Positions 8,916 through 34,469 of a stretch of 64,000 bases of DNA are shown here, piece after piece. The notes beneath the pieces were generated by a model that was not told the DNA's origin, ran no database searches, and saw only the letters and a list, made by a program, of their open reading frames with translations. A program made the position numbers and the translations under genes. The DNA lies in the NCBI GenBank assembly GCA_964409615.1, contig CAYPDT010000001.1:78629-142628 (forward strand), given 5' to 3'. The DNA comes from an uncultured Candidatus Saccharibacteria bacterium. GTDB taxonomy: Bacteria > Patescibacteriota > Saccharimonadia > Saccharimonadales > AWTP1-31. Every line of letters begins with the position of its first letter. Position 1 is the stretch's first letter.

Positions 8916-8945
8916 GACTCTCCTGGGAATTACACCTTAAATCTG

Positions 8946-8974: not shown

Positions 8975-8988
8975 TATATATAACACTT

Positions 8989-16857: not shown

Positions 16858-16917
16858 GTTTGTAGCAAATAAACTACTTGTCTAAAGTAACCATAACCGT
16901 TACAGTTGGCAGTAACG

Positions 16918-17652
16918 ATGAGACAATCCAAATTGCGACTGTACTGTTTTTCGCCGCCTGTAATGTTGGCGACCTTTATTATCGAAATCGGACTATTCCT
17001 CTGGGTACTTGGTAAGTGGGGTGCAAAGAGTACGGCTAACAGGCTGGTGCTGGCAATATTATTCTTCCTGGCCTTGTTCCAGTTGGCTGAATATAACGTT
17101 TGTGGACGGTTTAATATAGACGCATTGACGTGGTCTCGCATCGGCTTTGTGTCCATTACGATGCTGCCGCCGCTTGGTATGTATCTAGTCTACGTCCTGG
17201 CTGGTAAGAAGGAGCGCGTATTAGCGTGGTTGAGCTATCTCATGGGTGCGGTGTTTATTTACATATTTGCGTTCAGTAGTGTGGCCTTTAACTCGCATGT
17301 CTGTGCTGGTAACTATGCCATCTTCCAGCTGAATGCAGATATGCACCTTGGTGGTCTGTACTTTATCTACTACTACGGCTGGTTATTCATGGCCATGGCT
17401 TTTGCGGCGCTATATGCCAGAACTGTCAAGAAAGCCCAGGCCAAGGCACTGTGGTATGTCATTGCAGGGTACTGCTTCTTCCTTATACCTACAACAGTAG
17501 TTAACATGGTCAAGCCCGAGACGATGAGCGGCATACCGAGTGTTATGTGTGGCTTTGCAGTTACCTGGGCACTGGTACTCGTGTTTGGTATTCTGCCCGT
17601 GACAAAAGAGATGTCCTCTGGCCCGAGTAAGAAAACAGTCAAGAAAAAGTAG
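16918..17652 (+). CDS. Polytopic membrane protein (about 7 predicted TM helices), function unknown
   Basis: ORF 16906..17652 (TTG); ATG at 16918 preferred. Almost entirely hydrophobic helices. Lies 48-60 nt downstream of the kinase gene on the same strand. Confidence 0.6.
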   Translation: MRQSKLRLYCFSPPVMLATFIIEIGLFLWVLGKWGAKSTANRLVLAILFFLALFQLAEYNVCGRFNIDALTWSRIGFVSITMLPPLGMYLVYVLAGKKERVLAWLSYLMGAVFIYIFAFSSVAFNSHVCAGNYAIFQLNADMHLGGLYFIYYYGWLFMAMAFAALYARTVKKAQAKALWYVIAGYCFFLIPTTVVNMVKPETMSGIPSVMCGFAVTWALVLVFGILPVTKEMSSGPSKKTVKKK

Positions 17653-17657
17653 CGTAC

Positions 17658-17685
17658 TTGACATTGCCGCCAATGCGGTTATGAT
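17658..17685 (+). promoter_or_regulatory. Strong sigma70-type promoter
   Basis: Consensus TTGACA (17658-17663), 16-nt spacer, TATGAT (17680-17685). Starts 6 nt after the stop of the upstream gene. Confidence 0.5.
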
Positions 17686-17691
17686 TAGAAT

Positions 17692-17803
17692 AATCGTGCG
17701 CTCTAGCGGCGTTTGCAAAACAAACATTGACCAAAACAAAAAGCACCCGCCGCGGGTGGGCGCGCACGACAGTGAGAACACCTCTTTTACGGAGGTGTTT
17801 TTG
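17692..17803 (+). ncRNA. Candidate structured small RNA or 5'-leader (about 110 nt), bounded by its own promoter and intrinsic terminator
   Basis: Long-range stem CGTGCGC (17694-17700) / GCGCACG (17764-17770) encloses a GC hairpin CACCCG-ccg-CGGGTG. Terminator ACACCTC-ttttacg-GAGGTGT plus TTTTTG lies at 17778-17803. No family recognised. Confidence 0.4.
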
Positions 17804-17866
17804 TTATTCGTACTCTTTACGCTTATGGTATACTTTTGGTAATACAATCTAAAACAAAAAAGATAT

Positions 17867-19426
17867 ATGGCACAAACAAAAAGAACTGCAAAGCGCCCGA
17901 CCGGAAGTAAGTCTAAAAGCACGCCCAACCCAATTTTGAAACAATTCACTAATCTGACTATGCGGAGCAAAGTCCTCGTTGGAGCTCTGCTGTTTGCATT
18001 AGTGGGCGGCGCTGTTGTAGCCTTTTCTAGTGCGGCAGATCCTAATACTGTGTCGGTGGACATTATTAAGACGCAGTATGCTTATCCGTCTAATGCTCTC
18101 TTTGTGTCTCCTGGCGGCAATGACTGTACTACTACTTCTTGCGGTACGCAGAATGCGCCGTATAAGACACTTAAATTCGCTGTCTCTAAGGCGGTTTCTG
18201 GTAATACCATTGTGATGCGTGAGGGAATTTACCGTGAAGCTCTTGGGAGCATGACCAAATCCCTGATGATACAGGCATATCCTAATGAAAAGGTCTGGCT
18301 GGATGGCTCAGATGTCATTCCACAAAATGAATGGATTCAAGATGGAACCAGCTGGCGCAAGGATAACTGGGTCGCAGCTAACGCAATGTGTCCTAAGAAG
18401 ACGACGCCAGAAGATCCAAGTAATCCAGATAATGTCGTTAATTATAGCTGTTACACCACTGACCCACAGGGCTCTAAATGGCTAGTCAATGCGGCAAATC
18501 CTGCATCTTTCTTGCCTGACATGTTCTTTGTAGACGGCATACAACTTAAGCAAGTGCTCACGCGTAACGAAGTTAAAGCTGGGACATTCTATATTAACCG
18601 AAATACTTCGCAGGTCTTTATCGGGGACAACCCAAGTGGTAAGCAGGTAGAAGGTTCAACAAGACAGCAGGCTATACAGTATTACAAAGCGGGCACTGCA
18701 GGTAGCAAGCTCCGCGGTATTGGTGTCCGTAAGTTTGCTTCTAAGATTGTCTTTACCTCTCAGCCAGGGCAGATTGAAGTGAGCAATGGCGCTAAAGGCA
18801 TTGAATTCGATAACATGGTCTTTACGCAGTCTGCCGCCAATGGATTGTTTGTAACTGGCTCAGCAGCAGATAAATCAACAGGGCTGGTGGTACGGAATAG
18901 TATCTTTGCAAACAATGGTACTTCTGGTTTGTCAGGCAACCAAGTCGACTCCATGACCGTCGAGAACAATATCTTCTATAACAACAATACCGAAAAAGCT
19001 GAGTGGGAGGGGGATTACGGATCCTTTGCCGGTTCTAAGATGGCTGTTATGACTAATTCAACAGTCAAGAACAACTTATTCCAGGGTAACTACGGTTCAG
19101 GCTTCTGGTGCGACTTAAGCTGCCAGAATAATGCTATCATCGGCAATATGTCACGAGATAACCTGGTCAATGGCATATACTACGAGATCAGCTTTGATGG
19201 CATCATTGCCTCTAACGTTACCTACGGCAATGGTGCGGCAGGACTTAAGGCCATAAAACAACATAATGAATGGCGAGGCTACAGAAGATACTGCCAGAGC
19301 GATGAACGAGACAATCCGCGAGTAAGCTTCGCTGAAAAGCAGGATGGTTGCTGGCTTGAATCGCTTCATAAACCAGTTGCTTGTCTTGAAGCCAATAGTG
19401 CTCCAAATATAGTTAGCAGACAATAA
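17867..19426 (+). CDS. Secreted or anchored right-handed parallel beta-helix repeat protein, probably 3'-truncated near 19250
   Basis: N-terminal TM (VLVGALLFALVGGAVVAF). Beta-helix repeats NSIFANNGTSG, NNIFYNNN, NNLFQGNYGSGFWCD, IIGNMSRDNLVNGIYYE. The last roughly 56 codons are antisense to hydrophobic MFS helices and look non-native. Confidence 0.6.
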   Translation: MAQTKRTAKRPTGSKSKSTPNPILKQFTNLTMRSKVLVGALLFALVGGAVVAFSSAADPNTVSVDIIKTQYAYPSNALFVSPGGNDCTTTSCGTQNAPYKTLKFAVSKAVSGNTIVMREGIYREALGSMTKSLMIQAYPNEKVWLDGSDVIPQNEWIQDGTSWRKDNWVAANAMCPKKTTPEDPSNPDNVVNYSCYTTDPQGSKWLVNAANPASFLPDMFFVDGIQLKQVLTRNEVKAGTFYINRNTSQVFIGDNPSGKQVEGSTRQQAIQYYKAGTAGSKLRGIGVRKFASKIVFTSQPGQIEVSNGAKGIEFDNMVFTQSAANGLFVTGSAADKSTGLVVRNSIFANNGTSGLSGNQVDSMTVENNIFYNNNTEKAEWEGDYGSFAGSKMAVMTNSTVKNNLFQGNYGSGFWCDLSCQNNAIIGNMSRDNLVNGIYYEISFDGIIASNVTYGNGAAGLKAIKQHNEWRGYRRYCQSDERDNPRVSFAEKQDGCWLESLHKPVACLEANSAPNIVSRQ

Positions 19427-20167
19427 GCTACCCACGTATGACAACGGAACATATTGTCGGTAATATGCTGGCATCATGTTCCATGCTGCGCCACCCACGC
19501 CACCACCTAAGATCGAAGCAAAACTCATCATCCGCAGGTGTGAGTTAGCTCGATAGTAGCGGAACGTATCACCGAGATGACTCAAGAAAGTTCCCGTTAC
19601 GGGTGTTGTTCGTGGCGGCTCAATGAGCGTGAAACTAGTGAGCACAGCCAACACTTGGGGCACAACAGAGATCCATAATACCCAGGTGTAGGATATGGCT
19701 GCGAAGATTGTCCCAGCAATAGCTGAAATGATCCCACCTACTTCTAGCGCAATATTGATCTTACTGTAATAGCGGTGAAATTCGTCTCGTTCCCCCGCGT
19801 GTCTGGCCGAATCGTACATGAGAGCATTGTTGGTTCCACTGAACAGCGCGAAACTGAGTCCCTGTAGTACTGCACCTACAAGCAACAAAGCGTAGGCAGG
19901 AGCGAGTGCATAGATGACAAGTCCGGCAAGACTTGCTACTGCGCCAATTCGCATACTAATTACTCTTCCAATCCGATCAGACATAATACCCGTTGGTATC
20001 TCTAGTACCGCTTGGGTAATCTGTACTGTTGCCCATACAGTCGCTCCGAGTGTAAAGGAATGCAAAATATGGGCAAAATATAGCACTAACACTACATAGT
20101 AGGGTTGTACGTTGGATAGGAACGTGAAGCGGAACAACGCCCGCATGTTGTGTTGCAATAGATTCAT
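19151..20167 (-). CDS. MFS transporter, probably 3'-truncated (about 10 of 12 TMs) near 19260
   Basis: 338 aa. About 10 TMs by my count, with the loop motif GIMSDRIGR. The tail KSCRTIAVGNVRGNDAIKADLVVYAIDQVIS is antisense to beta-helix coding sequence. Start overlaps the ABC-F stop by 4 nt. Confidence 0.65.
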   Translation of the reverse strand: MNLLQHNMRALFRFTFLSNVQPYYVVLVLYFAHILHSFTLGATVWATVQITQAVLEIPTGIMSDRIGRVISMRIGAVASLAGLVIYALAPAYALLLVGAVLQGLSFALFSGTNNALMYDSARHAGERDEFHRYYSKINIALEVGGIISAIAGTIFAAISYTWVLWISVVPQVLAVLTSFTLIEPPRTTPVTGTFLSHLGDTFRYYRANSHLRMMSFASILGGGVGGAAWNMMPAYYRQYVPLSYVGSLLSANYIWSTIGFKTSNWFMKRFKPATILLFSEAYSRIVSFIALAVSSVASPFIMLFYGLKSCRTIAVGNVRGNDAIKADLVVYAIDQVIS

Positions 20168-21627
20168 AGATGCAGCTCCTTAGTTGGCTGTAATGTCTCA
20201 GCAAAGTATGTATCGTGCGAAGCAAATAGTACTGCTCCTTGGTAGCGTTGCAGTGCCTCCTCAATGTGTTCGCGTGTTGGTAAGTCAAGGTGGTTTGTCG
20301 GTTCGTCCAAGATCAGTAAGTGATGCGAGGCGAGCAACAGCTTAGCAAAGCCAATCTTGGCTTGCTGGCCTCGTGATAGCTCCTCAACTGGTTTGGTGAG
20401 GTCATCTTTGGTAAGCCCCAAACTCCGTGCTTCTCGGAAAATGTCAGTCATATGAGCACCAGTGTGTTGTAAGTTAACAAGGCCAGATTGGTGGTGATCG
20501 AGCCCATCAACATCCTGGCTAAAATAGCCAACACTAACATTAGTGCCTATGTCTACTTGTCCGCTATCTGGTTGCAATCGTCCGGCAACAATACTCAGTA
20601 AGGTTGTTTTACCAGCTCCATTCGGCCCTTGTACATGGATGCGTTCGTTACCTCGGATCTCTAGATTGATTGAACGCAGACCAGATGCACCGTAGCGTTT
20701 TGTGACTTCAATTGCACGCAACACTAGCTTATCGCCATTAACCTGACCACCGAGTTTGATACCGTAGCTCTTAGCAAACTCTGGGCGTTCTACATCTTCC
20801 ATTTGATCGAGTCGTTTCTCTAACTGCTTGGCTTGTTGACCAAACTTATTGGTAACTCGATTCTTAAAGAAGTCACGTTGAGCCGTATCATGGTCATGTC
20901 GCGGCTTCATATGGCTATGGGTATGACTACCTTTTTCGCGTTGCTCACGCAGAGCAGCCGTTAGTCGGTTGCGTTCATCGATATTCTCTTGGTAGCGTGC
21001 CAATTCGCTTGCACGCTCTAGCTCCTTTTGCTGCTTATAGAAATCGTAGTTACCGCCATATTGCTTGAGGCTACCGTTATGCAGCTCTAACGTTTTAGTG
21101 GCTACCTGGTTAATGAACGCTCGGTCGTGACTAACCAACAATATTGCGCCATCAAAAGACGTAATGAAGCTACGCAGCCATTTAAGACCATCAGCATCGA
21201 GATTGTTAGTTGGTTCGTCTAGCAGTAACAACGAAGGCGTGGGATCTTGAGCCAGCACCACGGCAAAGCTAACCCGAGTCTTTTGGCCGCCACTCAAGGT
21301 TTTGACAGGTGCATCAAGATCTTTGTCTAAATCTACCTGCGACAAGGCGTACTGAATATGCCACGTCTCATGAGTAGCCGAAAAACTTTCTCGAATTGTT
21401 TTCCCTAAGGTCGCCTGTTGCGGAACATACCCGACCACGCCACGAAGTTGCACAGTACCACCATCTGGCTTAACTGTGCCGGTCAAGATCTGCAGTAAGG
21501 TAGTTTTGCCCGCACCGTTAGCACCGATTAAAGCAACTACCTCGTGGGCGTTAATGGCTAAACTGATATCATCTAGAACAGACAATCCGGAATATGATTT
21601 ACTGATATGGCGTAAGCTAAATGCCAT
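20164..21627 (-). CDS. ABC-F family ATPase (two ABC domains, no TMD), ARE/ribosome-protection-like size and linker
   Basis: 487 aa. Walker A GANGAGKTT and GPNGAGKTT. Signatures LSGGQKTRV and LSRGQQAKI. Walker B LLLLDEPTNNLD and LILDEPTNHLD. Long charged inter-domain linker. Confidence 0.9.
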   Translation of the reverse strand: MAFSLRHISKSYSGLSVLDDISLAINAHEVVALIGANGAGKTTLLQILTGTVKPDGGTVQLRGVVGYVPQQATLGKTIRESFSATHETWHIQYALSQVDLDKDLDAPVKTLSGGQKTRVSFAVVLAQDPTPSLLLLDEPTNNLDADGLKWLRSFITSFDGAILLVSHDRAFINQVATKTLELHNGSLKQYGGNYDFYKQQKELERASELARYQENIDERNRLTAALREQREKGSHTHSHMKPRHDHDTAQRDFFKNRVTNKFGQQAKQLEKRLDQMEDVERPEFAKSYGIKLGGQVNGDKLVLRAIEVTKRYGASGLRSINLEIRGNERIHVQGPNGAGKTTLLSIVAGRLQPDSGQVDIGTNVSVGYFSQDVDGLDHHQSGLVNLQHTGAHMTDIFREARSLGLTKDDLTKPVEELSRGQQAKIGFAKLLLASHHLLILDEPTNHLDLPTREHIEEALQRYQGAVLFASHDTYFAETLQPTKELHL

Positions 21628-21645
21628 GTTTTACTCCAATCAAAA

Positions 21646-21686
21646 AACCGAGCGATTATGCAGATATGCCACACATGCGCTCGGTT
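21646..21686 (-). terminator. Terminator/attenuator hairpin 20 nt upstream of the ABC-F start codon
   Basis: Minus strand: AACCGAGCG, 23-nt loop, CGCTCGGTT, then TTTTTG, then GGAG RBS and ATG. The loop contains the mini-ORF ATG TGT GGC ATA TCT GCA TAA (21676-21656). Confidence 0.5.
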
Positions 21687-21856
21687 TCTTTAGAAGTTAG
21701 GTTGAAAAATCAATCAATAGCAAAGCTACGCGTTCATGCGTGACATCTTAGCTGTTGATTAAATCTATCATTGGATATGTTCTTCCTTTACGTTTCAAGC
21801 ATATTAACATAACCGTTGTCATGTGTCAACTTTATGTAATTGCGCGCAAGGTTCTC

Positions 21857-22645
21857 TCAATCATAGCTTACAAATTCCAACGGCAACCCGTGATACACCA
21901 ACTCCTCATCCCAATCTACCTCAATCGGCCGCAACCAGATATTTTTCTCGCCACTCAGCAAGCGTTCTTCAGTTGTGGTGTAGAGTTCTGAATCCCACAT
22001 AAGGTCGGTTGACATCTTAATAATGCGTTTCTCGGTATTGTCGTTGCCAGCTACTAATAATAGGTATGGGTAGCGGTAGTCTACCTCGTCGGAGTAATCG
22101 ATATGCTGGTTTATGCGCTTTCGGATAATCCAGCTTTGTTCACCAGCAGGGATATATTCTACGAAGAGTTCTGGGGCATCTTCGTCGTCCGGTGACAGCA
22201 ATAGCCAAGGTATAGGGTTGATGTATGTTTCCGGGTCAAGTTGGTACTTGGTGTAGGTGCGGAACATTTTTGGGTAGTTGCGGTGTATATTCAGACTAAA
22301 CTTCGGATAGCGGTAGTATTCGTCTATCTGGTGTTCAGTAAAGTCCTTGTTTTTGTAGTGGATCTGGGTACGGGGGATATCTCGTGATTTTAGGTAGCGT
22401 ATGCCAGCAGGTGCTAAGTAATAGGTAGCTGGTCGTCTATCTATCCTGTAAGTGCCCTCGTATTTCTTCGCAACGTATCCTTGATCTACTAGTACTGCTA
22501 ATCTTTCGTATATTGTTGATCTGTCTTTCTTTAATAGTTCAGCTAGTAAGTCAGTTGTTAGGAATCGGTATTTTAGTAATGCTAGTAATATTGCAGTTTG
22601 TGAAGGACTAATTTTGTATCTTGCTCTTGTCTCCGCCCGTCTCAT
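21857..22645 (-). CDS. Replication-relaxation-family-like winged-helix protein (element A)
   Basis: 262 aa. N-terminal wHTH pattern SPSQTAILLALLKYRFLTTDLLAELL...TIYERLAVLVDQGYVAKK...YYLAPAGIRYL. Paralog of 33446..34213. Confidence 0.55.
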   Translation of the reverse strand: MRRAETRARYKISPSQTAILLALLKYRFLTTDLLAELLKKDRSTIYERLAVLVDQGYVAKKYEGTYRIDRRPATYYLAPAGIRYLKSRDIPRTQIHYKNKDFTEHQIDEYYRYPKFSLNIHRNYPKMFRTYTKYQLDPETYINPIPWLLLSPDDEDAPELFVEYIPAGEQSWIIRKRINQHIDYSDEVDYRYPYLLLVAGNDNTEKRIIKMSTDLMWDSELYTTTEERLLSGEKNIWLRPIEVDWDEELVYHGLPLEFVSYD

Positions 22646-22775
22646 GGTTTCTTCTCCTATATGTATATATAAAAGAGGAGAAGTTGAAAGTAAAGGTATA
22701 ACAGGTTAAAGTCATTTGTAAATTACCCTGTGCCTTAGTGGGGATTTTGAACAGCAGTTCTAGACAATAATAGTC

Positions 22776-22805
22776 TTGCAACTATTCATATTTGGGTGCT
22801 ATACT
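22776..22805 (+). promoter_or_regulatory. Candidate promoter for the small-ORF/recombinase A operon
   Basis: TTGCAA (22776-22781), 18-nt spacer, extended -10 TGCTATACT (22797-22805), about 35 nt upstream of the ATG at 22840. Confidence 0.4.
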
Positions 22806-22839
22806 ATCCATATAAAGCATAGTGCTAGAGGGTAGTAAT

Positions 22840-22980
22840 ATGGGTAGAACTAAGGGCGCAACCAACAAAGAAATACCGCTTCCAGAAGTCTATACATTAT
22901 CGCCGGAGCAACGCTTGCACGTTATAGCTGACTTGCTGATCGAACTCATATGCGAGGAAGAGGTATGCAGCCAGGAGTAG
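22840..22980 (+). CDS. Small element protein (46 aa, MGRTKGATNK...), homolog of 32505..32699
   Basis: Manually translated: MGRTKGATNKEIPLPEVYTLSPEQRLHVIADLLIELICEEEVCSQE. Aligns with MARTKGSKNKQTTALSEFVYMPSEERLKLIANLVIDRVIEDQ in element B. Overlaps the recombinase start in both elements. Not in the ORF track. Confidence 0.45.
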   Translation: MGRTKGATNKEIPLPEVYTLSPEQRLHVIADLLIELICEEEVCSQE

Positions 22981-24698
22981 AACGGCGTAACGCTGTCATA
23001 GCTATTCGGGTATCGTCCGATAAGCAGTTTCAGGAAGGCGATTCCCCAGAAGCACAACGTGAACAGCTCCAGCAACTTGCGGACAACCTGAATGCACAAG
23101 TGGCCAAGGTCTTTATATTTGCTGAATCTGGTGCAAAACTTCATCAGCCAATGCAGGAGGCAATCGATTACTGCGCCGACAGACGCAACAACATTCAGCT
23201 ATTCCTTATTAAGTCGATTGATCGGTTTACTCGTGGCGGTGCTGACTTTTACGCTCCTTTGAAACGCCAGCTTGATGCTATCGATGTACAGCTAGTAGAT
23301 AAATACGGCGTAATTAGTCAGAACCGAGTCAATACCTTAGAGCACTTGGGTGTGGAGTATAGCTGGAGTAAATATTCACCAAGTCAGAAGATTGAGTACT
23401 TAGAAGCCGAACGTGCCAAAGATGAACTACGTGACATATTAACCCGCACTGTCGGTGCATCGGTACGCTATACACGACTGGGTTACTGGATGCGACAACC
23501 GCCTTACGGTTTTGTGAGCGAGAAGACCGAAACCCGCAATGGCAAGCGTGCCATCTTAAAGCCCCAGCCTACTGAAGCTCCACTTATTAAACGGATGTTT
23601 GAAATGCGTGCCACAGGAACAATGCACGACAAAGACATTATTGCTGAGCTCAATCGCATGGGTTTTCGCACCAGAACGCACTATATACGAGACAAACAAG
23701 ACCGCTCAAAGATTATTAGTAGACGAGGTGGCAATCCACTCGATAAAGATGCTATGGACTTATTCCTACGTAATCCGATTTATGCTGGGGTTAATAACGA
23801 AAAGTGGACACAGGGCACACCAGTACGCACCGTGTTTGATGGGTTGGTGAGTATTGATACATTTAATGCTGCCAATCGGGGCAAAGTCATGATTATCGAG
23901 GACGGAAACGATATAGAGATTAAAAAGGAGGCAGCGCCAGAACACCAGCTCAACAAAGGAATTAAAAGCCCCGAGTTTGCCTATCGACGATTTATTGGTT
24001 GCTCGAAATGTGGCAGACCCATGTACGGTAGCTCCAATCGTGGACAAGGCGGTAAACTGTATCCGGCTTATCATTGCGACAAAGGACACTACTTCCGTAT
24101 TCCCAAAGCCGAGCTAGAGGCGACTGTTGTTGAGTTCGTAAAGAATATAGCCTTACCCCAAGAACAGATAGATCTAATAGCCAGCACCGTCATGGCTGAA
24201 TGGGATAAGCGCCTGGAGCACCTCGTAGCCGATCTAGCACGCTACGACACGCAGATTAAGGAACTGGAATTAGAGGCCGATATGGCCGTCAAAAAGCTTA
24301 AGATGGTCGAATCGGAAACAGCAATTAAATATATGGAGGCAGATCTTATGAACATCGAACAAAAGATACGTGAGCTACGAGCCGAGAAAGATAAGAAAAC
24401 GAGCGAGAAGCCGATAAACATGGAGCGAATCGTAGCGAGGGTTAAGTATTTTCTGGAACACCTCGATGAACTGCTCATAAAACAGATTGACCCGATCAAA
24501 AAAGCACAGTTCTTTGGGGTATTTTTCGATAAAATACCAACATACGCAGAATTAAAATCTGGAACTCAAAATGCGGCCAAATTAACAGAGGTCAGCAAGC
24601 TTTTTGAACTTGCCGACCTCAATTTACCTGGTTTGGTGGCTCCTCCCAGACTCGAACTGGGGACACAAGGCTCTTCAGGCCTCTGCTCTACCAACTGA
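22950..24698 (+). CDS. Large serine recombinase (element A)
   Basis: 582 aa. Catalytic region AVIAIRVSSDKQ...SIDRFTRGG, recombinase domain, Zn ribbon CSKCGRPMYG...YHCDKGHY, coiled coil. The last 21 codons (LVAPPRLELGTQGSSGLCSTN*) are the antisense of tRNA-Phe. Confidence 0.9.
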   Translation: MRGRGMQPGVERRNAVIAIRVSSDKQFQEGDSPEAQREQLQQLADNLNAQVAKVFIFAESGAKLHQPMQEAIDYCADRRNNIQLFLIKSIDRFTRGGADFYAPLKRQLDAIDVQLVDKYGVISQNRVNTLEHLGVEYSWSKYSPSQKIEYLEAERAKDELRDILTRTVGASVRYTRLGYWMRQPPYGFVSEKTETRNGKRAILKPQPTEAPLIKRMFEMRATGTMHDKDIIAELNRMGFRTRTHYIRDKQDRSKIISRRGGNPLDKDAMDLFLRNPIYAGVNNEKWTQGTPVRTVFDGLVSIDTFNAANRGKVMIIEDGNDIEIKKEAAPEHQLNKGIKSPEFAYRRFIGCSKCGRPMYGSSNRGQGGKLYPAYHCDKGHYFRIPKAELEATVVEFVKNIALPQEQIDLIASTVMAEWDKRLEHLVADLARYDTQIKELELEADMAVKKLKMVESETAIKYMEADLMNIEQKIRELRAEKDKKTSEKPINMERIVARVKYFLEHLDELLIKQIDPIKKAQFFGVFFDKIPTYAELKSGTQNAAKLTEVSKLFELADLNLPGLVAPPRLELGTQGSSGLCSTN

Positions 24699-24709
24699 GC
24701 TAAAGAGCC
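24634..24709 (-). tRNA. tRNA-Phe (anticodon GAA), CCA encoded
   Basis: Reverse complement folds as GGCUCUU-UA-GCUC-AGUUGGUA-GAGC-A-GAGGC-CUGAAGA-GCCUU-GUGUC-CCCAG-UUCGAGU-CUGGG-AGGAGCC-A-CCA (76 nt). Confidence 0.9.
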
Positions 24710-24785
24710 AGATTGTACTCGCGGACGAGCACAACTGCTGTTTGGTCAACGTGTCTAGGATACAGTATCAGGGGTAATTTTACAA

Positions 24786-25100
24786 TTACTTCTTCTTGAA
24801 TCGGCCAACATCGCGGGTGCTTAGTTTGCTAAGAACGCGCTCCATTGCTGGGTCTAGTTGTAAGCCCTGACTGTTTGCAATACAAATAGCTGCATGAATC
24901 ACATCTGCAAGTTCGTCTTCTAACAGTTCATGTTCTTCAGTAGGCTTTTTTGGCTTATCGCCATACTGGTGGTTCATAATGCGAGCAACTTCGCCAACCT
25001 CTTCTGTTAAGCGAGCCAAGATACTGAGCGGTTCCCAGTAAGGCTTTTCATATTGCTGTAGTTCATCATCAACACGTTTTTGGTAATCTGCTAACGACAT
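24786..25100 (-). CDS. MazG-like nucleotide pyrophosphohydrolase (small all-alpha NTP-PPase)
   Basis: 104 aa. LTEEVGEVARI...EELEDELADVIHAAICIANSQGLQL, the EExxE / ExxD metal-binding helices of the MazG family. Confidence 0.8.
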   Translation of the reverse strand: MSLADYQKRVDDELQQYEKPYWEPLSILARLTEEVGEVARIMNHQYGDKPKKPTEEHELLEDELADVIHAAICIANSQGLQLDPAMERVLSKLSTRDVGRFKKK

Positions 25101-25525
25101 AATTCAACAACTCCTATCTCATCGGGGTTAAAGTCGAGTCGCTTCATTTCATCGTGGTTAAAGTAACCGACTTCAGATGCTTCATCAGTAACGGTAAATT
25201 GGTCGCTGGCAAGTTGACCAGTGATAACAAGCTTGAGGGCGCGGTAATCGTATTTACTGTTTTTGCCATCCCAGAAACCTACTGGCGTGGCATCGATATG
25301 CTTGATATCCACGCCCAGCTCTTCTTGAATTTCTCGGCGGATACACTGCTCTACCGTTTCGCCGTAATCCCAACCACCCCCAGGCAAACACCAGCTACCG
25401 TCATCTTTGTTGCGCACCAACAGCGCACGGCCATCTGCATCGCGGACCATCAGCTTGATTGACACCCGGAAGAAAGAAGGCGGAATCACATACTGCTTGG
25501 TATCTATAGAGAAGCTATGGCTCAC
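25091..25525 (-). CDS. NUDIX hydrolase
   Basis: 144 aa. Complete Nudix box [24 protein letters not shown] (Gx5Ex7REUxEExGU). Confidence 0.85.
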
Positions 25526-26280
25526 TTACCCAGCTCTTTAGCGACAAATTTCTTAACATCACTCATAGAATCCATCAGCTGAGCTGGGAAGATAATGGTA
25601 CTGTTCTTTTCTACGGCGATTTCGCTGAGCACCTGCAGGTTGCGCAGCTGTAATGCAATTGGGTTCTTAGCAATCTCGGCTGCAGCCTCACCAAGCTTGG
25701 CAGCGCTTTGAGCCTCACCTTCTGCAGCGATAATCTTAGCTCGCTTTTCACGTTCTGCTTCTGCCTGCTTGGCCATAGCGCGTTGCATAGATTCTGGAAG
25801 GCGGATGTCTTTGAGCTCGACAGTACTAATGTACACGCCCCATTTTTCGGTAGCGATATCTAAGATAGATTTAATTTTCTCGTTAATGACCTTGGTTTCA
25901 CTGAGCACTTCGTCGAGATTACTCTGGCCAACAATATTACGAATAGTAGTTTGGGCAATTTGGTAAGTGGCCGATACAACATTACTGATTTCTACTAATG
26001 ACTTGATGGAGTTGTTTACCTGATAGTAGGCAACGGCACCAACTTCGATAGAAACGTTATCTTTGGTAATAATTTGCTGACTGTCGACTGGTAGCGTAAT
26101 GATGCGCATATCCACCTTTTTCATGATGTCAATAAACGGAATGATTACCCGCAGTCCAGCTAGCTTTGGTGCTGAGCGCACTCGGCCAAGTCGGAATACT
26201 ACGCCTTGCTCATACTGATTGACCAATCGTAGGCCCATAATTACACCAACGGCCACTAGAATTAACAGAAAAATCCACAT
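25522..26280 (-). CDS. SPFH / band-7 (stomatin-like) membrane protein
   Basis: 252 aa. N-terminal TM, then [11 protein letters not shown]...ITKDNV...VAYYQV and the C-terminal [21 protein letters not shown] coiled coil typical of the stomatin/HflK/C family. Confidence 0.9.
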
Positions 26281-26352
26281 TTCGCATCTCCTTTATATAT
26301 AGGTATCGTAGCACCAGACTCTCGAAAGCGAAACCATTTTTTGTTAGCTAGT

Positions 26353-27294
26353 TTACCAATTCAGATAAGCACCGTCCGGCTGGAAATACATTTCTCCGGT
26401 CTCTAAGATTTCTACCGAACCCGGCTCTAGAAATTCCGGAATCCGCTCTATTTTCTTCCACATGGGGATATCACTATTTCTGGCTGCCACATTGTCGCGT
26501 GTTAGAATGAAATTCTCAACAACTGATTGTGCTACTTTTTGCCCACGAAATTTATCTAAAACTGCTCGAGCAATCCGTTCATTCTTGCCTAACTGAGGAT
26601 ATCGCGGAGTAATTTGAAGTACATTATTGTCATACGACTTACTTGCTTCATCATATTCCCAGTCGGCATACTCTAAACCTACCGACCATTGGTCAACAGT
26701 GGGCAATCGGGCGCGTAGTTGTTGATGAGTTGCCGCGGGTTTGCCAGATTTAACGAGTAATTTACGGACACGGGGGCTGACGCCACCAATAACTGCCGTT
26801 TCTTCAATTCGGTCACCATATACTCCAACGTACAAGCATTCCCACCGTACGATACACGATGCGCATATTCTTTGTGCAAGTGGCAGTTGTTCTAGATGTA
26901 CTGGGTGGAATATCACTGGGTCTTTACCTTTACAGTTTGCATCTTTTTTAAGCAATTCGCGTAAATCATCTATATAGTCGAGGGTTGCCTGGTCTTTCAC
27001 CCGATTGTCTTCGTCGGCTTCGGCTAATAGTCGTCTGACCAATAGAGCGTGTTCAGATAGCTGCTGTGCATAACGCATAAGAAATTCCGGTATCAGTTGG
27101 TTTTGCTCCAACATACCAGAGCGAGCAAACAAGTCACGGACCAATTCAATATCCTCGCGTGAGGCAATAACATCTTCTAGTAATGACATGTCATTCTCAA
27201 TAGCAGCCATAAAAATCGTATTCTGGGTTTCACTAAAATCGCTAACTATTTCGCTTACTTCATCTTCAGTTAACCGCCGGCGGCGAATTGCCAC
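26353..27294 (-). CDS. 313-aa protein with an internal WhiB-like (Wbl) 4-Cys domain
   Basis: Residues 121-180 read CKGKDPVIFHP-x13-CASCIVRWEC...AVIGGVSPRVRKLL. This is C-x22-C-x2-C-x5-C with the DPxxFxP and G[VI]xGG..S..R motifs of Wbl proteins (nt 26755-26934). It is flanked by about 120-aa N- and C-terminal extensions. Confidence 0.55.
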   Translation of the reverse strand: MAIRRRRLTEDEVSEIVSDFSETQNTIFMAAIENDMSLLEDVIASREDIELVRDLFARSGMLEQNQLIPEFLMRYAQQLSEHALLVRRLLAEADEDNRVKDQATLDYIDDLRELLKKDANCKGKDPVIFHPVHLEQLPLAQRICASCIVRWECLYVGVYGDRIEETAVIGGVSPRVRKLLVKSGKPAATHQQLRARLPTVDQWSVGLEYADWEYDEASKSYDNNVLQITPRYPQLGKNERIARAVLDKFRGQKVAQSVVENFILTRDNVAARNSDIPMWKKIERIPEFLEPGSVEILETGEMYFQPDGAYLNW

Positions 27295-27344
27295 CGCGTG
27301 AGGCGTGGCCAGTATGGAAGATTGCTGGCCGGCCTCTGAGGGGC

Positions 27345-29009
27345 CTACGCTAAAAAACTTGGCGTCTTGCTGAGTGGCCTTACGGTTCGCGTAAAGGTTG
27401 GCTCTTTATAGCCAATTGGAGTAGCGGCTTGTAGCCAGGTGTCACCGGTTTCAGAATCGAATCTCAGCAACCCGTTTACATGGCTCGCATTATTCAACTT
27501 AGCAATCAAGGCGGTTATCTCGCCATGCAGTGTGTCTGAGTCTTTAGAAAGCAGACCGACTTCTTGGAGTCGAGGAATGTTAATTCGACAGTCTGGTGAA
27601 AGCACCAATAGATTCAAGAGCGTAACTTCTGGTCTACTAAATTGTAATGGCCTACCATTGAGTACACAGCGTTTAGCAGGCTCCAGACGTAGTAGTTCAA
27701 TATCGCCATCACGCGCAGGAATATAGTCGGCATGGACGTAGTCTCCTGCAAGGAAATTTCTCAATTTCGCAGGGTCTGCGCTTGGGTCACCGAGGTATTC
27801 GGCAAGTCGTGCAATATCCCACACTCCAAATTCCGCATCCACAAATGGTTCAGCAGTAGAATCCTCATCTTTTTCAGTGTCGCGATTTGCTTCGCCTGCA
27901 TTAGTTCTTTGAGTCAGTTGAGGAGATGGTTTTCTATCGGAATCTTTAGCCCCTCCTTCGTTCGCAGTAGAATCGTTATCTGAATATTCAACGACCCCAG
28001 ACGTAATTCTTGATGCTATGGCACGCTGATTAGGAATCAACTGACTCATAGAATCACCGGTGTATGCCTTTAGTCCTTTTAGTCGAGAGTTATACGCTCC
28101 AGGACTTAAAACTAATAGCTTGCACATGTCTTGATTACGCAAAAAACCAAAGGGTGAAAGGGCAAGCAAGATATTCATCACTTCACGCTGCCCTTCAAAC
28201 CGGACAACTGAAGTTGTACCGTCCGCATGCAATAACGTGTTGTTACTAATCGCCCGCAACGATGGCAACAAAGCGTCAAATTTACCGCCTCGGTATTCCG
28301 TATAAACGTCTACTAACCGCTGTCCCAAATGACCTTCAGCTAATTGACCTGGAATATCAAACATTTCTGTAACACGTATAAAGTCTGAAATTAATCCGCG
28401 CTTATCAACAAAATCAGGTAGCTCACCGCGCGAAATACAATCGAGTGCTTCATCTATGAATTGTTGTCTGGCAGTTCGCTCAACAGGAGCTGCTGCTTCA
28501 ACCGGCTGAGTGGTGATGATTGGCTGTGATTCGTCACTGCGTTCTATCAGCCAAACCAGGTCATCATCAGTATCTTGGTCGTCAGCTTCTATTACCGGAA
28601 GTACCGTATTAGCTTCTTCATCTAGCGTAGCTGGTGTTTCTACTGTTTGTGTTGGTGTTGGTGTTGGTGTTGGTGCTGGCGCCGGCGATTCCGCGCACGA
28701 ATCATCCAGGCAGAAGTCTTCTTCGGTAAGTTTGATTGCAGGCTGGGCAGCTACAGGTAATGCTGTTTCAACATCAGCTCGTGCTGCCTCTGGCAGCAAA
28801 ATAGACGTTCCTCCCAATAGTCGCTGCATTTCGGCAAGGACCGCCGTAGCTCTTTGTTCATCTGCGAACCCATCTACTCGTGCAAAGCTGTTTGCCAAAG
28901 CAATGTGTGCAAGCGCTTCACGTAAGTGGGCGTCGGCAGCAGTAATTTCTGCTGTCATCGATTGAGCAGCGTGTTCCATCCCATTACTTGCAGCAGTTGG
29001 AGTAGTCAT
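27345..29009 (-). CDS. Acidic 554-aa protein with a C-terminal OmpR/PhoB-type winged-helix (Trans_reg_C-like) domain and no receiver domain
   Basis: The C-terminus LRLEPAKRCVLNGRPLQFSRPEVTLLNLLVLSPDCRINIPRLQEVGLL...ITALIAKLN...IGYKE fits the Trans_reg_C pattern. Has a PAPAPTPTPTPT linker. Paralog of the divergent neighbour. Confidence 0.45.
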   Translation of the reverse strand: MTTPTAASNGMEHAAQSMTAEITAADAHLREALAHIALANSFARVDGFADEQRATAVLAEMQRLLGGTSILLPEAARADVETALPVAAQPAIKLTEEDFCLDDSCAESPAPAPTPTPTPTQTVETPATLDEEANTVLPVIEADDQDTDDDLVWLIERSDESQPIITTQPVEAAAPVERTARQQFIDEALDCISRGELPDFVDKRGLISDFIRVTEMFDIPGQLAEGHLGQRLVDVYTEYRGGKFDALLPSLRAISNNTLLHADGTTSVVRFEGQREVMNILLALSPFGFLRNQDMCKLLVLSPGAYNSRLKGLKAYTGDSMSQLIPNQRAIASRITSGVVEYSDNDSTANEGGAKDSDRKPSPQLTQRTNAGEANRDTEKDEDSTAEPFVDAEFGVWDIARLAEYLGDPSADPAKLRNFLAGDYVHADYIPARDGDIELLRLEPAKRCVLNGRPLQFSRPEVTLLNLLVLSPDCRINIPRLQEVGLLSKDSDTLHGEITALIAKLNNASHVNGLLRFDSETGDTWLQAATPIGYKEPTFTRTVRPLSKTPSFLA

Positions 29010-29136
29010 TCAACCTAGTGTACGTAGTTGTTATGTTCTGAGGCAAGGCGCAGGTATTAATTTACAACAATGCTTAGCAGACAAAGCGACAACTTTATTG
29101 ATTCGCTGGTATTGCAGTGCTATGCTTCGAGACAAG

Positions 29137-30531
29137 ATGACTATTCATACCGCACCAGCACTCCCATTGTCTCCAGAATTCAGTTTGCCGGAAGCATCTC
29201 TATCACCCGACGACCATTTACTGCGAGCGGCCGAACATATTGCGATTGCAGCTTTGCACGCATCACTTGCACAAGGCCAAGAAACCGATAGACTCCAGCC
29301 TATCGCACAAGAACTCTCCATACAATTAGGTGAAATAGAACGCTTGCTACCAGCTGCCGCCGTGGCACTATCTACCATTGTTGCACCTCCTGAGGTAGAG
29401 ACTCCCGAAGTGACAATCGACCTTGCCGATAATCCTGATGGTTCTACAGCAGAACCAACAATTACTACCATCGAGGATGTACTACCTCATCCAGTTTCTG
29501 AAGAGACTCCAGAGCACTCACCACAACCCGAATTATTTGATGACGCAACTCGGGCAAGATACCAGACAGTTTTGGGGAAAATTTTTGGAGACGACTCTAT
29601 TCAAGACCTGCATGATTCGGCGCTCATTCAACTCTTCCAAAGTGTAAGCTCGCGGTACACAGACATGACCATCACTCGACTGAGCAGTCAGGCAAAGCAA
29701 GACCGTGCTGCACAATTACAGCTTCATCTAGATGGAAAATCCAACCTTGAAATTGCTCAACAATATGGCAGCACTCGAGAAGCAATCAGTCAGGCTCTGC
29801 GGAAATTCTACGAAAGTTTTAACAGTCGGGTTACGCCAGAAGAGCTCGAGCAAACGCTTTCCAATGCCCAGGACGAAGTATTAAAACCAGAAGCATTGGA
29901 CGCTGCAACCACTGAAAAACCCGAAATACACCTGACCGACAGCGGCATAGTCATCAACAATGTTTGGTACGCAGCATCATCCGAACAATTACCCTACCTA
30001 GATATAATGCTCAATCTTGATACTGCAATTAGCGCTTCACGCTTAGCAGCCAAGCTCTCGAGTAGCGATGATGCAGCTACCAATTCTGAGGTTGACGTCG
30101 CCGAAGAGGCGTTGATTGACCTGCACCGACGAGGTATTGTAGAAGAAGTAAGTCATGAAATTGATGGTGAGATTCTAGTTGAATATAGAGTAAGCGCTAA
30201 TCCTGAAATTGGACTCAAGCGGAGAAATATTGTCACCATTGACGATAAAGTGCTCTACCTGACTGATTTAGATGTTGACGTACTGCAAATACTGACCGCA
30301 GATTTCATCTCGCTAAACACTAGTGCTATTTCGAGACTATTGAGCCCCGACCAACTTCTCACCAAACCAGTTTTCGATAAAATGGCCCGTGGTATCAAAA
30401 AATACTTAATTCCACAGGGTATTGTACAAAAAGTCTATCCACCGGATAGTCAAGTTACACCTGAATTTCAAGTTTCAAGTCAGTATTTCGGCGCTGTGCA
30501 CGATACTATCGCTGAACTAAAACGCAACTAA
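29137..30531 (+). CDS. Paralog of 27345..29009: sigma-70 region-4/LuxR-like HTH plus C-terminal OmpR-type winged helix, no receiver domain
   Basis: ORF track 29098..30531. Start chosen at MTIHTAPA to match the paralog's MTTPTAA. HTH LHLDGKSNLEIAQQYGSTREAISQALRKF. C-terminus IVTIDDKVLYLTDLDVDVLQILTADFISLNTSAISRLL. Confidence 0.5.
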   Translation: MTIHTAPALPLSPEFSLPEASLSPDDHLLRAAEHIAIAALHASLAQGQETDRLQPIAQELSIQLGEIERLLPAAAVALSTIVAPPEVETPEVTIDLADNPDGSTAEPTITTIEDVLPHPVSEETPEHSPQPELFDDATRARYQTVLGKIFGDDSIQDLHDSALIQLFQSVSSRYTDMTITRLSSQAKQDRAAQLQLHLDGKSNLEIAQQYGSTREAISQALRKFYESFNSRVTPEELEQTLSNAQDEVLKPEALDAATTEKPEIHLTDSGIVINNVWYAASSEQLPYLDIMLNLDTAISASRLAAKLSSSDDAATNSEVDVAEEALIDLHRRGIVEEVSHEIDGEILVEYRVSANPEIGLKRRNIVTIDDKVLYLTDLDVDVLQILTADFISLNTSAISRLLSPDQLLTKPVFDKMARGIKKYLIPQGIVQKVYPPDSQVTPEFQVSSQYFGAVHDTIAELKRN

Positions 30532-30555
30532 CTGGTGCATTCACTCAAACAAATT

Positions 30556-30576
30556 AAAAACCCACCGACAGGTGGG
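30556..30576 (-). terminator. Intrinsic terminator downstream of tRNA-Val
   Basis: Minus strand: CCCACC-tgtc-GGTGGG followed by TTTTT, 9 nt after the tRNA-Val 3' end. It also sits 25 nt after the stop of the plus-strand gene. Confidence 0.6.
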
Positions 30577-30584
30577 ATGTAATA

Positions 30585-30661
30585 TGGTGGGCGCTGAGGG
30601 ACTCGAACCCCCGACCCCCTCGGTGTAAACGAGGTGCTCTAGCCAGCTGAGCTAAGCGCCC
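30585..30661 (-). tRNA. tRNA-Val (anticodon UAC), CCA encoded
   Basis: Reverse complement GGGCGCUUAGCUCAGCUGGCUAGAGCACCUCGUUUACACCGAGGGGGUCGGGGGUUCGAGUCCCUCAGCGCCCACCA. Anticodon loop UUUACAC. Confidence 0.9.
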
Positions 30662-30729
30662 AAACCAATAGCAACTATTTTACACTTTTCACTAATATTA
30701 TTCAAGCTGTTAGTATAGTTAAACGCTAT

Positions 30730-30758
30730 TTACGAACCACTACCAAAAATGGTAGAAT
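30730..30758 (+). promoter_or_regulatory. Candidate promoter of tRNA-Leu(GAG)
   Basis: TTACGA (30730-30735), 17-nt spacer, TAGAAT (30753-30758). The tRNA starts 13 nt downstream. Confidence 0.5.
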
Positions 30759-30770
30759 AACCGTTGATTT

Positions 30771-30857
30771 GCGCGAGTGCTGGAATTGGTAGACAGGCTA
30801 CGTTGAGGTCGTAGTGTTCGCAAGGACGTGGAGGTTCAAGTCCTCTCTCGCGCACCA
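30771..30857 (+). tRNA. tRNA-Leu (anticodon GAG), long variable arm, CCA encoded
   Basis: GCGCGAGUGCUGGAAUUGGUAGACAGGCUACGUUGAGGUCGUAGUGUUCGCAAGGACGUGGAGGUUCAAGUCCUCUCUCGCGCACCA. Anticodon loop UUGAGGU. Confidence 0.9.
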
Positions 30858-32533: not shown

Positions 32534-32699
32534 GGTCTACCCTCAACTTACGCTCTATATGCTTATCGCCCTTTTGATCTTCTATTACACGATCAATCAC
32601 TAGATTTGCTATAAGCTTTAACCGTTCTTCACTCGGCATGTATACAAACTCGGATAGGGCGGTCGTCTGTTTATTCTTTGAGCCTTTGGTGCGTGCCAT
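32505..32699 (-). CDS. Small element protein (MARTKGSKNK...), homolog of 22840..22980
   Basis: ORF 32505..32732. Start set at MARTKG by homology with element A. Overlaps the recombinase B start by 29 nt. Confidence 0.5.
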   Translation of the reverse strand: MARTKGSKNKQTTALSEFVYMPSEERLKLIANLVIDRVIEDQKGDKHIERKLRVDHAIGTISTT

Positions 32700-32700
32700 C

Positions 32701-32883
32701 TTATAACTTCTTTCGGCTCGCCTTGGCTTCAAAGCCTAGGCTTATCTCTCGTTTAGTGAGTTTTCCGGTAATCTCATTCTGAACAAAGCAAATAATCCGG
32801 ACATCGGCAATCTCTACAATCATCTCTCCAACTGCTAATACTTTGAGCATTTGTCTTCTGTTTGATGATTTGACCTTACCCAT
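32701..32883 (-). CDS. Small hypothetical protein (element B)
   Basis: 60-aa ORF tightly packed between the RHH gene and the MARTKG gene. No motif recognised. Confidence 0.3.
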   Translation of the reverse strand: MGKVKSSNRRQMLKVLAVGEMIVEIADVRIICFVQNEITGKLTKREISLGFEAKASRKKL

Positions 32884-32945
32884 GTCTACCCTCCACTAAA
32901 AAACGTACCGTTGATAGGTACGCTTATAACTCGACTAACAGGAGG

Positions 32946-33158
32946 TTATTTCTCCCAGGGTCTGCCTGGTTTAGGTCTGTCTTTTAATTCTTGTTCCACT
33001 AACTTTTTAAGTTCTTTGTCGCCAGAACTGGCAAGGAGCTTCAGGATGAGTTCGCTAAGTGTCTTGCCGTTTTTCTGGGCAACAGCTTTAGCGCGGCTAC
33101 GAACCGCGTCTGACACTCGTATCTGCATACTCACTATCTTCCTGGACATAAGCCCCAT
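32946..33158 (-). CDS. Ribbon-helix-helix (CopG/Arc-like) DNA-binding protein (element B)
   Basis: MQIRVSDAVRSRAKAVAQKNGKTLSELILKLL shows the beta-strand then helix-helix pattern of RHH repressors. The true start may be the internal Met (about 33128). Confidence 0.55.
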   Translation of the reverse strand: MGLMSRKIVSMQIRVSDAVRSRAKAVAQKNGKTLSELILKLLASSGDKELKKLVEQELKDRPKPGRPWEK

Positions 33159-33445
33159 TTTAATACTTAATCAGTTTTTCTGCTACATATACCCTCGTTT
33201 AGCCGAATTATTAACGTACCTTCTACATATAAATAGTATTACTAATTAAACTAAATAGCAATACTAATTAACGATTTTCTGACGTAATATTTACTCCAAT
33301 AAAGGTTGCTACCGTAAGCAACGATTATTACTTAAATTAACAGATGTAAACCTACCTCAATATTCTTCCTCTATTATATAAATATAAGAGTGACAAGAGT
33401 ATAGTACAGAGACAGGAATAGAGAGCGGTGGTGAGAGAGTGTTAG

Positions 33446-34213: not shown

Positions 34214-34469
34214 CTTCACTTGGCATTATATAAAATAACAAGCCACCTTGTCGCTTGCGACGAGGTTTGATCGTAATATAGTGGAGGTCTGGATACATTC
34301 AGTGACGACAATCACCCGAGAATCATACGTTTTGCTTTCTTTATCATACCGGCCAGTGCACGTTATGAGATTAAGTTGCTAGGCTCATTTTCAAAACTGC
34401 ATGATTTGTATGTATGTAGTTATTACCTCAACACGTCTTATGAATCAGCGTTATCGATTGGTATCTAAG

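Follow-up and report, generated by a model that had tools for sequence, protein, structure and literature searches.

Saccharibacteria islands at tRNA genes with a serine integrase gene that appears to be split by its own integration

How does an integrase gene come to borrow its 3' end from a neighbouring tRNA gene? The question is raised by a 64-kb stretch of DNA from an uncultured Candidatus Saccharibacteria bacterium (contig CAYPDT010000001.1, positions 78,629 to 142,628; hereafter the window), in which the gene of a large serine recombinase (LSR) runs without a stop codon of its own into the opposite strand of tRNA-Phe(GAA). Genome engineering relies heavily on serine integrases, whose choice of direction is an active question. 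We found that this gene, LSR-A, belongs to a 19,227-bp island (island A, 5407-24633), that a related 17,289-bp island (island B, 30858-48146) with LSR-B occupies a tRNA-Leu gene, and that each island, the two making up 36.5 kb of the window, holds at its far end an in-frame sequence continuing its LSR gene. Island A very probably carries its attachment site attP inside the LSR open reading frame (ORF), so that integration splits the gene at the CCA end of tRNA-Phe and excision restores the long form. We take this serine-integrase island with an SSV-like split gene to be real, general across bacteria of the candidate phyla radiation (CPR) and experimentally tractable.

Boundaries, repeats and empty sites

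Much of what the original prediction had described at tRNA-Phe was borne out by direct reading and by tRNA calling with ARAGORN: an intact tRNA-Phe(GAA) with an encoded CCA end sits at a block of three genes for a winged helix-turn-helix (wHTH) protein, a 46-aa MGRTKG protein and LSR-A, all present with coordinates and domains, and an 8-bp inverted repeat at 22651-22683 has a similar motif at 33363-33399. The LSR-A frame overlaps the tRNA gene by 65 nt up to its first stop, a TGA at 24696-24698 in the D-arm, the final 15 residues (LELGTQGSSGLCSTN) being antisense tRNA-Phe. Homology between LSR-A and LSR-B (48 % identity) was likewise correctly said to stop before the tRNA, the alignment ending at KLFEL; the last four residues and the stop of LSR-B come from antisense tRNA-Leu.

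The predicted extent, a unit of about 2.9 kb starting at 21691, did not hold. The search for empty sites at tRNA-Phe that had been proposed along with it succeeded, as exact look-up of the MazG protein adjoining tRNA-Phe yielded two contigs from two samples (L099 and L103) in which 1-5422 is joined to 24633 onward with one copy of a 17-nt core, giving an element of 19,227 bp. Flank identity is 100 % except on the tRNA side of L103 (99.8 %). At the distal junction (attR), 16 nt of the tRNA-Phe 3' end recur without mismatch as TGGTGGCTCCTCCCAG and together with the preceding T form the 17-nt repeat; this is the sole other match in the window, with 0.01 expected by chance. The same logic predicted the distal end of island B, where the 8-nt repeat TGGTGCGC was indeed found, and in the empty site L098, which came from the same MazG look-up, window positions 24756-30857 are joined to 48139-49389 with a single copy of the 8-nt core and flanks of 99.2 % and 99.8 % identity.

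Islands A and B are hence precisely absent from close relatives, a presence/absence polymorphism at a conserved target, and empty sites with 100 % flanks in the same sample series suggest recent excision or insertion. Precise empty and occupied sites with common 8-17-nt cores would be the genetic footprint of attP × attB integration with a 2-bp staggered crossover, and the junctions, repeats and empty sites together support the earlier proposal of an LSR element that targets a tRNA 3' end. Copies of the island A distal module, 100 % identical, lie beside three different outer flanks, all of which diverge exactly left of TGGTGG. L006 and L007 carry the proximal module at 89 % identity next to unrelated flanks, and window positions 19246-24710 recur at 89-93 % nucleotide identity in L007 and L090, the remaining flanks being different.

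Exact repeats measure 16-17 nt in island A, 8 nt in island B, 9 nt in the pair L008/L096 and 7-8 nt in L097. These lengths place the crossover within 6-8 nt at the start of the tRNA 3' end (CCA, discriminator and first acceptor bases), to the right of which the element sequence merely imitates the tRNA. On excision of island A the predicted junction is CCTGGTTTGGTGGCTCCTCCCAGGGAAAACTGG, with attP(A) as ...CAATTTACCTGGTTTGGTGGCTCCTCCCAGGGAAAACTGGAACGAC...; for island B, attP(B) is predicted as ...CAATTGGTCACTTGTGGTGCGCTCACTGGATTG.... Searches closer to the LSR genes found no tRNA fragment near 21600-21900 or 34180-34500 and only chance repeats over 21000-35000, as the true boundaries lie much further out. 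The ABC-F gene left of the wHTH gene was considered as host flank and rejected, for in other contigs it adjoins the same wHTH/LSR module together with MFS, aminoglycoside phosphotransferase (APH) and acetyltransferase genes; a metagenome scan for empty sites with ABC-F gave four weak, uninformative loci.

The severed tail and the LSR family

By fold and motifs, LSR-A can be assigned to the large serine recombinases. Pfam recovers the domains Resolvase (PF00239, E = 9.5e-8) and Recombinase (PF07508, E = 3e-6) and, slightly under the cut-off, a Zn-ribbon (PF13408, E = 9.6e-5), while PHROG gives an integrase match (E = 1e-37). The start was set at M 22965 by comparison with 577-aa homologues. The catalytic residues R15 and S17, judged over 23 and 50 sequences, are invariant in the family, and invariant cysteines stand at 346, 349 and 371. 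A PDB sequence search with the LSR detected the catalytic domain of TP901-1 as its sole match (E = 4e-7); an AlphaFold (AF2) model of an LSR-A homologue, compared with the PDB by Foldseek, aligned over ~567 columns with the full-length serine integrase complexes 9dxf and 9y66 (E = 1e-18). In this model coiled-coil helices span residues 401-482, the attP-encoded region of ~530-566 is a low-confidence linker, followed by the tail as a short helix (567-583). The bodies of integrated LSR copies are under strong purifying selection (dN/dS 0.03-0.05).

Directly after the distal core, and in the same frame in which the LSR is read at the proximal junction (attL), follow 31 codons in island A and 42 in island B. 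The long homologues P0059, P0065, P0077, P0089 and P0097 have tails homologous to that of island A, which tblastn with the P0065 tail matches at E = 2.7e-4. Tails keep their frame, their length class, a W-N...L..L..LG motif and a predicted helix where the LSRs themselves are only ~50-60 % identical, with a dN/dS of 0.20-0.45 across comparisons (0.20 for island A against L096). They are acidic and helical and have no ssrA-like ending. In all four distal ends the tail stop overlaps the ATG of a nuclease gene in the form ATGnnTAG, which is ATGcgTAG in island A and ATGttTAG in island B. A tail in frame after the distal core implies that excision would rebuild a longer LSR; as read from the DNA, attP would lie inside the integrase ORF and integration would partition the gene, as in SSV-type elements.

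The other two distal ends belong to two unrelated genomes with housekeeping genes outside them. In L096 the distal end lies on one contig with the L008 LSR and tRNA-Phe, 16 kb away, and reads TTGGTGG followed by ACTCTACC..., encoding LVDSTRENWNDILSELAKLSDKLEKLDIDTIMESSDA and a stop; in L097, on the contig of a tRNA-Glu LSR, the distal tail encodes LVNSRVLNWKQLSLSIEQISNKLEALGIDEIMEADNV and a stop. With severed tails in islands A and B and in these two genomes, the earlier idea of a C-terminus that is supplied by the target and altered on excision gains strong comparative support. Among the 80 genome loci described below, a tail hidden Markov model and tblastn with the PLD-family nuclease found no distal ends except in L095, the 6-kb flanks being shorter than a typical island. 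A tail-like match at 49440-49484 of the window was rejected as out of frame inside an FAD-oxidase-like gene.

Since the core begins (A/T/C)TG GTG, the severed tail could be translated alone in the integrated state as a peptide of ~37 aa. Gene callers annotate such a lone tail peptide in L106 (4895-5008) and L109 (34-147), and the window has GAGG 8 nt upstream.

For a family census, one genome per GTDB species was scanned, which gave 356 loci, 80 of which were fetched with 6-kb flanks; the protein homologue set comprised 1631 sequences at E ≤ 1e-10, and tails were classified in the 120 closest. An antisense-tRNA T-arm/acceptor peptide ends 108 of these 120, with signatures such as ...MVTPRGIEPLLPG, ...LVAPPRLELGT... 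and ...MVTPAGFEPAIF.... These database proteins with a "GIEPLLPG"-type end are real integrated-state ORFs and not an artefact of gene calling. Six others carry a different tail of ~30 aa with the motif W-N/K...L..L..LG, and the last six are partial sequences or have other tails. Tails read by eye repeatedly show the CCA end in the nTG-GTG register. At the level of loci, the ORF stop falls inside or beyond an opposite-strand tRNA in 65 of 80 (overlap 11-569 nt), 10 being cut by contig ends and five being exceptions. Target tRNAs are Glu-UUC (25), Glu-CUC (15), Phe (9) and Gln (8), plus Leu, Lys, Asn, Asp, Arg and Ser. The fetched loci come from Saccharibacteria, WWE3, Microgenomates, Roizmanbacteria and Parcubacteria, and a scan of IMG/VR found no LSR relatives; the family is regarded as specific to the CPR. 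It also makes plain that specialisation on tRNA 3' ends is open to serine integrases.

LSRs in their full length (590-602 aa) also exist in metagenomes, on contigs L001-L004, L094 and L095 (contigs listed for attP-type gene order with full-length LSR: L001-L005, L094 and L095). Around them the gene order is wHTH, small ORF, LSR, Mrr_cat or PLDc_2 nuclease, 70-aa ORF and XRE regulator, which, judged by gene content and order, matches exactly that expected of a circularised island A or B. This permuted order would make the contigs excised circles or tandem-island junctions. How closely the two forms can be related is seen in P0075, with a tRNA-Glu tail, and P0065, with a long tail: over 562 aa the two are 97 % identical, and they diverge just after ...THLV(T/S)S. 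Exact look-up of P0075 returned no record.

A protein identical to the island A nuclease and a third LSR with a tRNA-Glu tail are recorded outside the window (P0075/P0241), which makes a third such island in the source genome probable. In L018 (4590-4851) an LSR is followed by a 28-nt 3' fragment of tRNA-Phe, a stretch of ~150 nt that includes a decayed tail (ENSPW...) and an intact tRNA-Phe; a tandem island probably left this arrangement behind.

Mechanism, rival explanations and known systems

In the free form, attP would lie within the LSR ORF 31 codons before its natural stop, and the gene would read ...LNLPGLVAPPR-ENWNDIFSGITRLSDELEKLGIDIVMETDNA and stop, for a full-length LSR-A of 593 aa, translationally coupled through ATGnnTAG to the PLD-family nuclease. 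The backbone would run from the wHTH gene (minus strand) over the inverted repeat with its TATA-rich core, the small protein, the LSR, attP, the tail, a PLD or Mrr nuclease and the 72-aa ORF to the XRE gene (minus strand), with cargo placed between XRE and wHTH. Recombination in TGGTG.. would split this operon on integration and move tail and nuclease 19 kb off to attR, while the remaining LSR body would read antisense tRNA until a chance stop, its tail helix being swapped for three or more arbitrary residues. Because all LSR domains precede the junction in the AF2 model, integration would have three effects: the tRNA is left intact, with a hairpin embedded in the LSR gene standing in for the lost terminator; the tail is lost; and the nuclease and the genes downstream of it are parted from the LSR operon. 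Excision would then yield the long form again.

From the conservation of the tail we infer that the two LSR isoforms may differ in activity or stability, which would create a state-dependent switch of direction or expression, and that the nuclease may be expressed with the LSR solely from the free form. A more specific version, which we offer tentatively as a possible but rather unlikely model, is a switch encoded by topology: the full-length LSR, co-translated with the PLD nuclease and made from the free form alone, would drive integration, and integration would itself turn the enzyme into the tRNA-tailed isoform, which might be excision-competent with the small protein or silenced, the nuclease being uncoupled. 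If true, the tail swap would control direction without, or besides, a classical recombination directionality factor, and a whole family of tRNA-targeting islands moving cargo, resistance-like genes included, among the CPR would use it. LSRs that rewrite their own coding sequence as they recombine would offer a directly testable new mode of control.

Several points weigh against this account. The exact crossover dinucleotide is not fixed, as dyad symmetry around the cores is weak, and the attP junction of island A had no match in the viral_contigs (IMG/VR) scan. The contigs with full-length LSRs could be tandem-island junctions instead of free circles, and the island A copy may be decaying, given its internal truncations (at 19246, in LigA and in DUF3800). 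Moreover, the tail may be dispensable, since the junction comes after every catalytic and DNA-binding domain and also after the coiled coil, and the integrated-form tails, with their widely varying tRNA overlap, are arbitrary in length and evidently tolerated.

These last two points also favour the best-surviving alternative, according to which the split is a by-product of compaction: the tail would be neutral, both forms equivalent recombinases, and direction set by, for example, the MGRTKG protein, a small ORF being always present upstream of the LSR. This is a possibility to which we give limited weight. The arbitrary tails at 65 loci fit it, but a neutral tail would hardly be expected to keep frame, length class, motif and predicted helix across distant LSRs, to show constraint (dN/dS 0.2-0.45) although it is untranslated as LSR when integrated, and to retain the ATGnnTAG coupling to the nuclease in four of four cases.

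An integrase that is "suicidal", its tail-less form being inactive and the islands fixed unless a full-length LSR acts in trans, seems improbable. It has a conceptual parallel in SSV-family integrases with attP in the ORF (PMC7253208) and would suit both the internal decay of island A and a source genome with at least two, probably three, related islands. The loss, however, concerns only the last 31-42 of ~600 residues and no catalytic half; the integrated LSR bodies are kept at a dN/dS of 0.03-0.05; and precise empty sites with 100 % flank identity occur in the same sample series.

A self-contained mini-plasmid of ~2.9 kb bounded at 21691 is hardly tenable, even though its three genes (wHTH, small protein, LSR) form a conserved block and the similarity of L006 and L008 to the window stops just left of the wHTH gene: the empty sites show 5407-24633 to be present or absent as one unit, no repeat or junction lies at 21691, no replication gene was found in the element, and the loss of similarity marks the boundary of backbone and cargo, the L008 island extending over 16 kb as far as a tail and a PLD gene of its own (L096).

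With a split gene that excision restores as the preferred reading, the islands can be set beside known systems. Like phiC31, Bxb1, TP901-1, A118 and SPbeta, the LSR family has an N-terminal R-x-S catalytic domain, a recombinase domain and a zinc ribbon with coiled coil, and as in serine integrases generally its att sites are short, share little identity with their partner and cross over within a few bases. To our knowledge, the serine integrases studied so far have attP outside the integrase coding sequence. A 2020 survey put the use of tRNA genes at 4.9 % for serine and 44.5 % for tyrosine integrases, and described it for the serine enzymes as not reported before and still to be proven (PMC7192596). 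The present family differs from the studied serine integrases in its target at the tRNA 3' end, in attP being in the ORF and in its CPR hosts.

SSV1 integrates into a tRNA gene. The archaeal tyrosine integrases of SSV1 and pT26-2 likewise have attP in the ORF, so that integration splits the gene and excision rebuilds it (PMC7253208). The likeness is functional only, for the enzyme families are unrelated (serine versus tyrosine) and the hosts belong to another domain of life; in addition, the SSV-type gene is cut into two inactive pseudogenes, whereas the LSR family loses 31-42 codons and its body continues into tRNA antisense. In mycobacteriophages the longer form of the repressor is degraded via a C-terminal tag. 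Mycobacteriophages BPs and Brujita and those of cluster P are similar in that attP lies near the 3' end of a gene, with C-termini that differ between free and integrated forms and are regulatory there (PMC4557955). Their switched gene, however, is the repressor, and their integrase is a tyrosine recombinase. Prochlorococcus tycheposons resemble the islands in gathering cargo at tRNA genes with tandem and degenerate copies, and 27 of 937 use an LSR (10.1101/2020.12.28.424599); they differ in being overwhelmingly tyrosine-recombinase elements with partial tRNA flanks of ~40 nt and no split integrase described. In the literature covered, which excluded subscription-only papers, we found no serine integrase with attP in its ORF and no report of such CPR tRNA islands. 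For CPR hosts, which are hard to manipulate, the defined attB/attP pairs at tRNA genes might be turned into tools for integration.

Backbone, cargo and regulatory features

The features of both islands are collected in Table 1.

Table 1. Coordinates of island features in the window (strand "." where none applies).
Feature	Position	Strand	Basis or remark
Distal junction (attR) core, island A	5407-5422	+	Exact 16-nt copy of tRNA-Phe 3' end
Severed 3' end of LSR-A gene, LVAPPR-ENWNDIFSGITRLSDELEKLGIDIVMETDNA and stop	5406-5519	+	Stop TAG 5517-5519; direct reading
PLD-family (PLDc_2) nuclease-like gene A	5512-6018	+	Pfam PF13091, E = 4.5e-11
Conserved backbone ORF, 72 aa	6011-6229	+	Position
XRE-type HTH regulator, distal backbone	6226-6438	-	PHROG transcriptional regulator, E = 2.5e-14
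Island A cargo	6465-21627	.	Pfam
wHTH protein A	21857-22645	-	Pfam TrmB, E = 3.9e-7; HTH_36
Inverted repeat CTTCTCCT/AGGAGAAG around TATA-rich core	22651-22683	.	Divergent intergenic region
Basic MGRTKG protein, 46 aa	22840-22980	+	ORF; overlaps LSR start
LSR-A, integrated form, 577 aa	22965-24698 (ORF 22950-24698)	+	Direct reading and homologues
Hairpin, 14-bp stem and T-rich tail, inside LSR 3' coding region	24588-24620	- (tRNA strand)	
tRNA-Phe(GAA), island A target, CCA encoded	24634-24709	-	ARAGORN; attL (proximal junction) core 24634-24649
tRNA-Leu(GAG), island B target	30771-30857	+	ARAGORN; attL core TGGTGCGC (minus-strand reading) 30850-30857
LSR-B, integrated form, 565 aa	30836-32533	-	Reads 22 nt into tRNA-Leu(GAG)
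wHTH protein B	33446-34213	+	Pfam; comparison with island A copy
PLDc_2 nuclease-like gene B	47536-48018	-	Pfam E = 5.5e-13; probable ATG 48016-48018
Distal end, island B	48011-48146	-	8-nt core 48139-48146, then in-frame LSR-B tail LTGLLFEPLMQDIYLLQSKIEALGVVYQNGKVMYLDGEDSHV and stop

On the tRNA side, the hairpin inside the LSR-A gene, which lies immediately beyond the tRNA 3' end, has an island B counterpart at 30859-30878 on the plus strand. Over 64 loci its mean stability is -14.0 kcal/mol, versus -8.2 kcal/mol in controls, and hairpins at -12 or lower occur in 40 of 64 loci versus 8 of 64 controls. Within the Phe clade the two arms covary. Integration takes the tRNA's own terminator away, and the hairpin is its probable substitute.

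The small ORF upstream of the LSR stands at the same place in every locus inspected. Family searches with the 46-aa MGRTKG protein, Pfam and PHROG among them, gave no match; an accessory or directionality role is a candidate function for it. The wHTH proteins of islands A and B share 28 % identity. Their predicted likeness to replication-relaxation proteins stood in part: precomputed PF13814 (Replic_Relax) matches are on record for orthologues in L092, L095 and L097, whereas wHTH-A has none in Pfam and wHTH-B scores 19.9 bits (E = 8.7e-4), under the cut-off of 25.3. The likeness is limited to the N-terminal wHTH part, and a replication-relaxation or plasmid role appears to be a weak family resemblance.

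In its left arm the inverted repeat is simply the wHTH gene's own Shine-Dalgarno sequence. Such repeats with TATATGTATATATAAAAG-like cores recur in many loci in the stretch that separates the wHTH gene from the LSR operon, including 33363-33399, and their arms change together among loci (CTCCT/AGGAG, CTCTT/AAGAG, TCTAC/GTAGA). The region is a candidate operator or promoter, the operator perhaps serving the wHTH protein. In L097 (20117-20495) an IS1595-type transposase adjoins the wHTH gene where other islands hold the small ORF and the LSR.

At the distal end, a PLDc_2 or Mrr_cat gene also follows the full-length LSRs of L094 and L095. An ORF of 63-75 aa occupies the place of the 72-aa ORF in island B (47327-47518) and in L094-L097 and L106, although tblastn with both window copies found no relatives in these L094-L097 and L106 loci, and an HTH_3 gene takes the XRE position in the same five.

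The cargo of island A starts with a 184-aa ORF and continues with gene debris (7176-8465), in which a DUF3800 fragment (139 aa versus 248 aa in L106/L108) abuts the C-terminal part of the NAD-dependent DNA ligase LigA (7446-8465), a fragment with OB, Zn, HhH and BRCT regions that lacks the adenylation domain. There follow a 2622-aa surface protein (8989-16857) with 12 DUF285 repeats, PKD, DUF11 and a C-terminal HisKA/HATPase module, a truncated beta-helix protein (17867-19426), a truncated MFS gene (19151-20167) and ABC-F (20164-21627). At 19246 the truncated MFS (338 versus 388 aa) meets the truncated beta-helix gene, the ORFs overlapping on opposite strands, in what looks like a deletion or recombination scar inside the island. 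Island B carries a shorter paralogue-like copy of the 2622-aa protein (34470-37520) among its DUF285/PKD/HATPase proteins (34470-37520 and 37536-39044), besides DUF11, LTD/CotH, amidase and HD proteins. No virion, packaging or lysis genes were found in islands A and B with Pfam, so that neither qualifies as a prophage.

The ABC-F and MFS cassette (19151-21627) is common to islands at 70-93 % nucleotide identity (L007, L090-L093 and L053); its relatives hold APH or acetyltransferase genes, and L090 has adjoining transposases of insertion sequences. Judged by this distribution, the cassette appears to be antibiotic-resistance-like cargo that moves between Saccharibacteria islands. With ABC-F, MFS and APH/acetyltransferase cassettes, defence genes and giant surface proteins on board, the islands would be a main vehicle of gene flow in these tiny-genome bacteria.

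Between the two islands, the natural variant L102 is devoid of a 3.65-kb host segment (26807-30456), and a WhiB-like ORF (26353-27294) is fused there to a 477-aa ORF (29098-30531).

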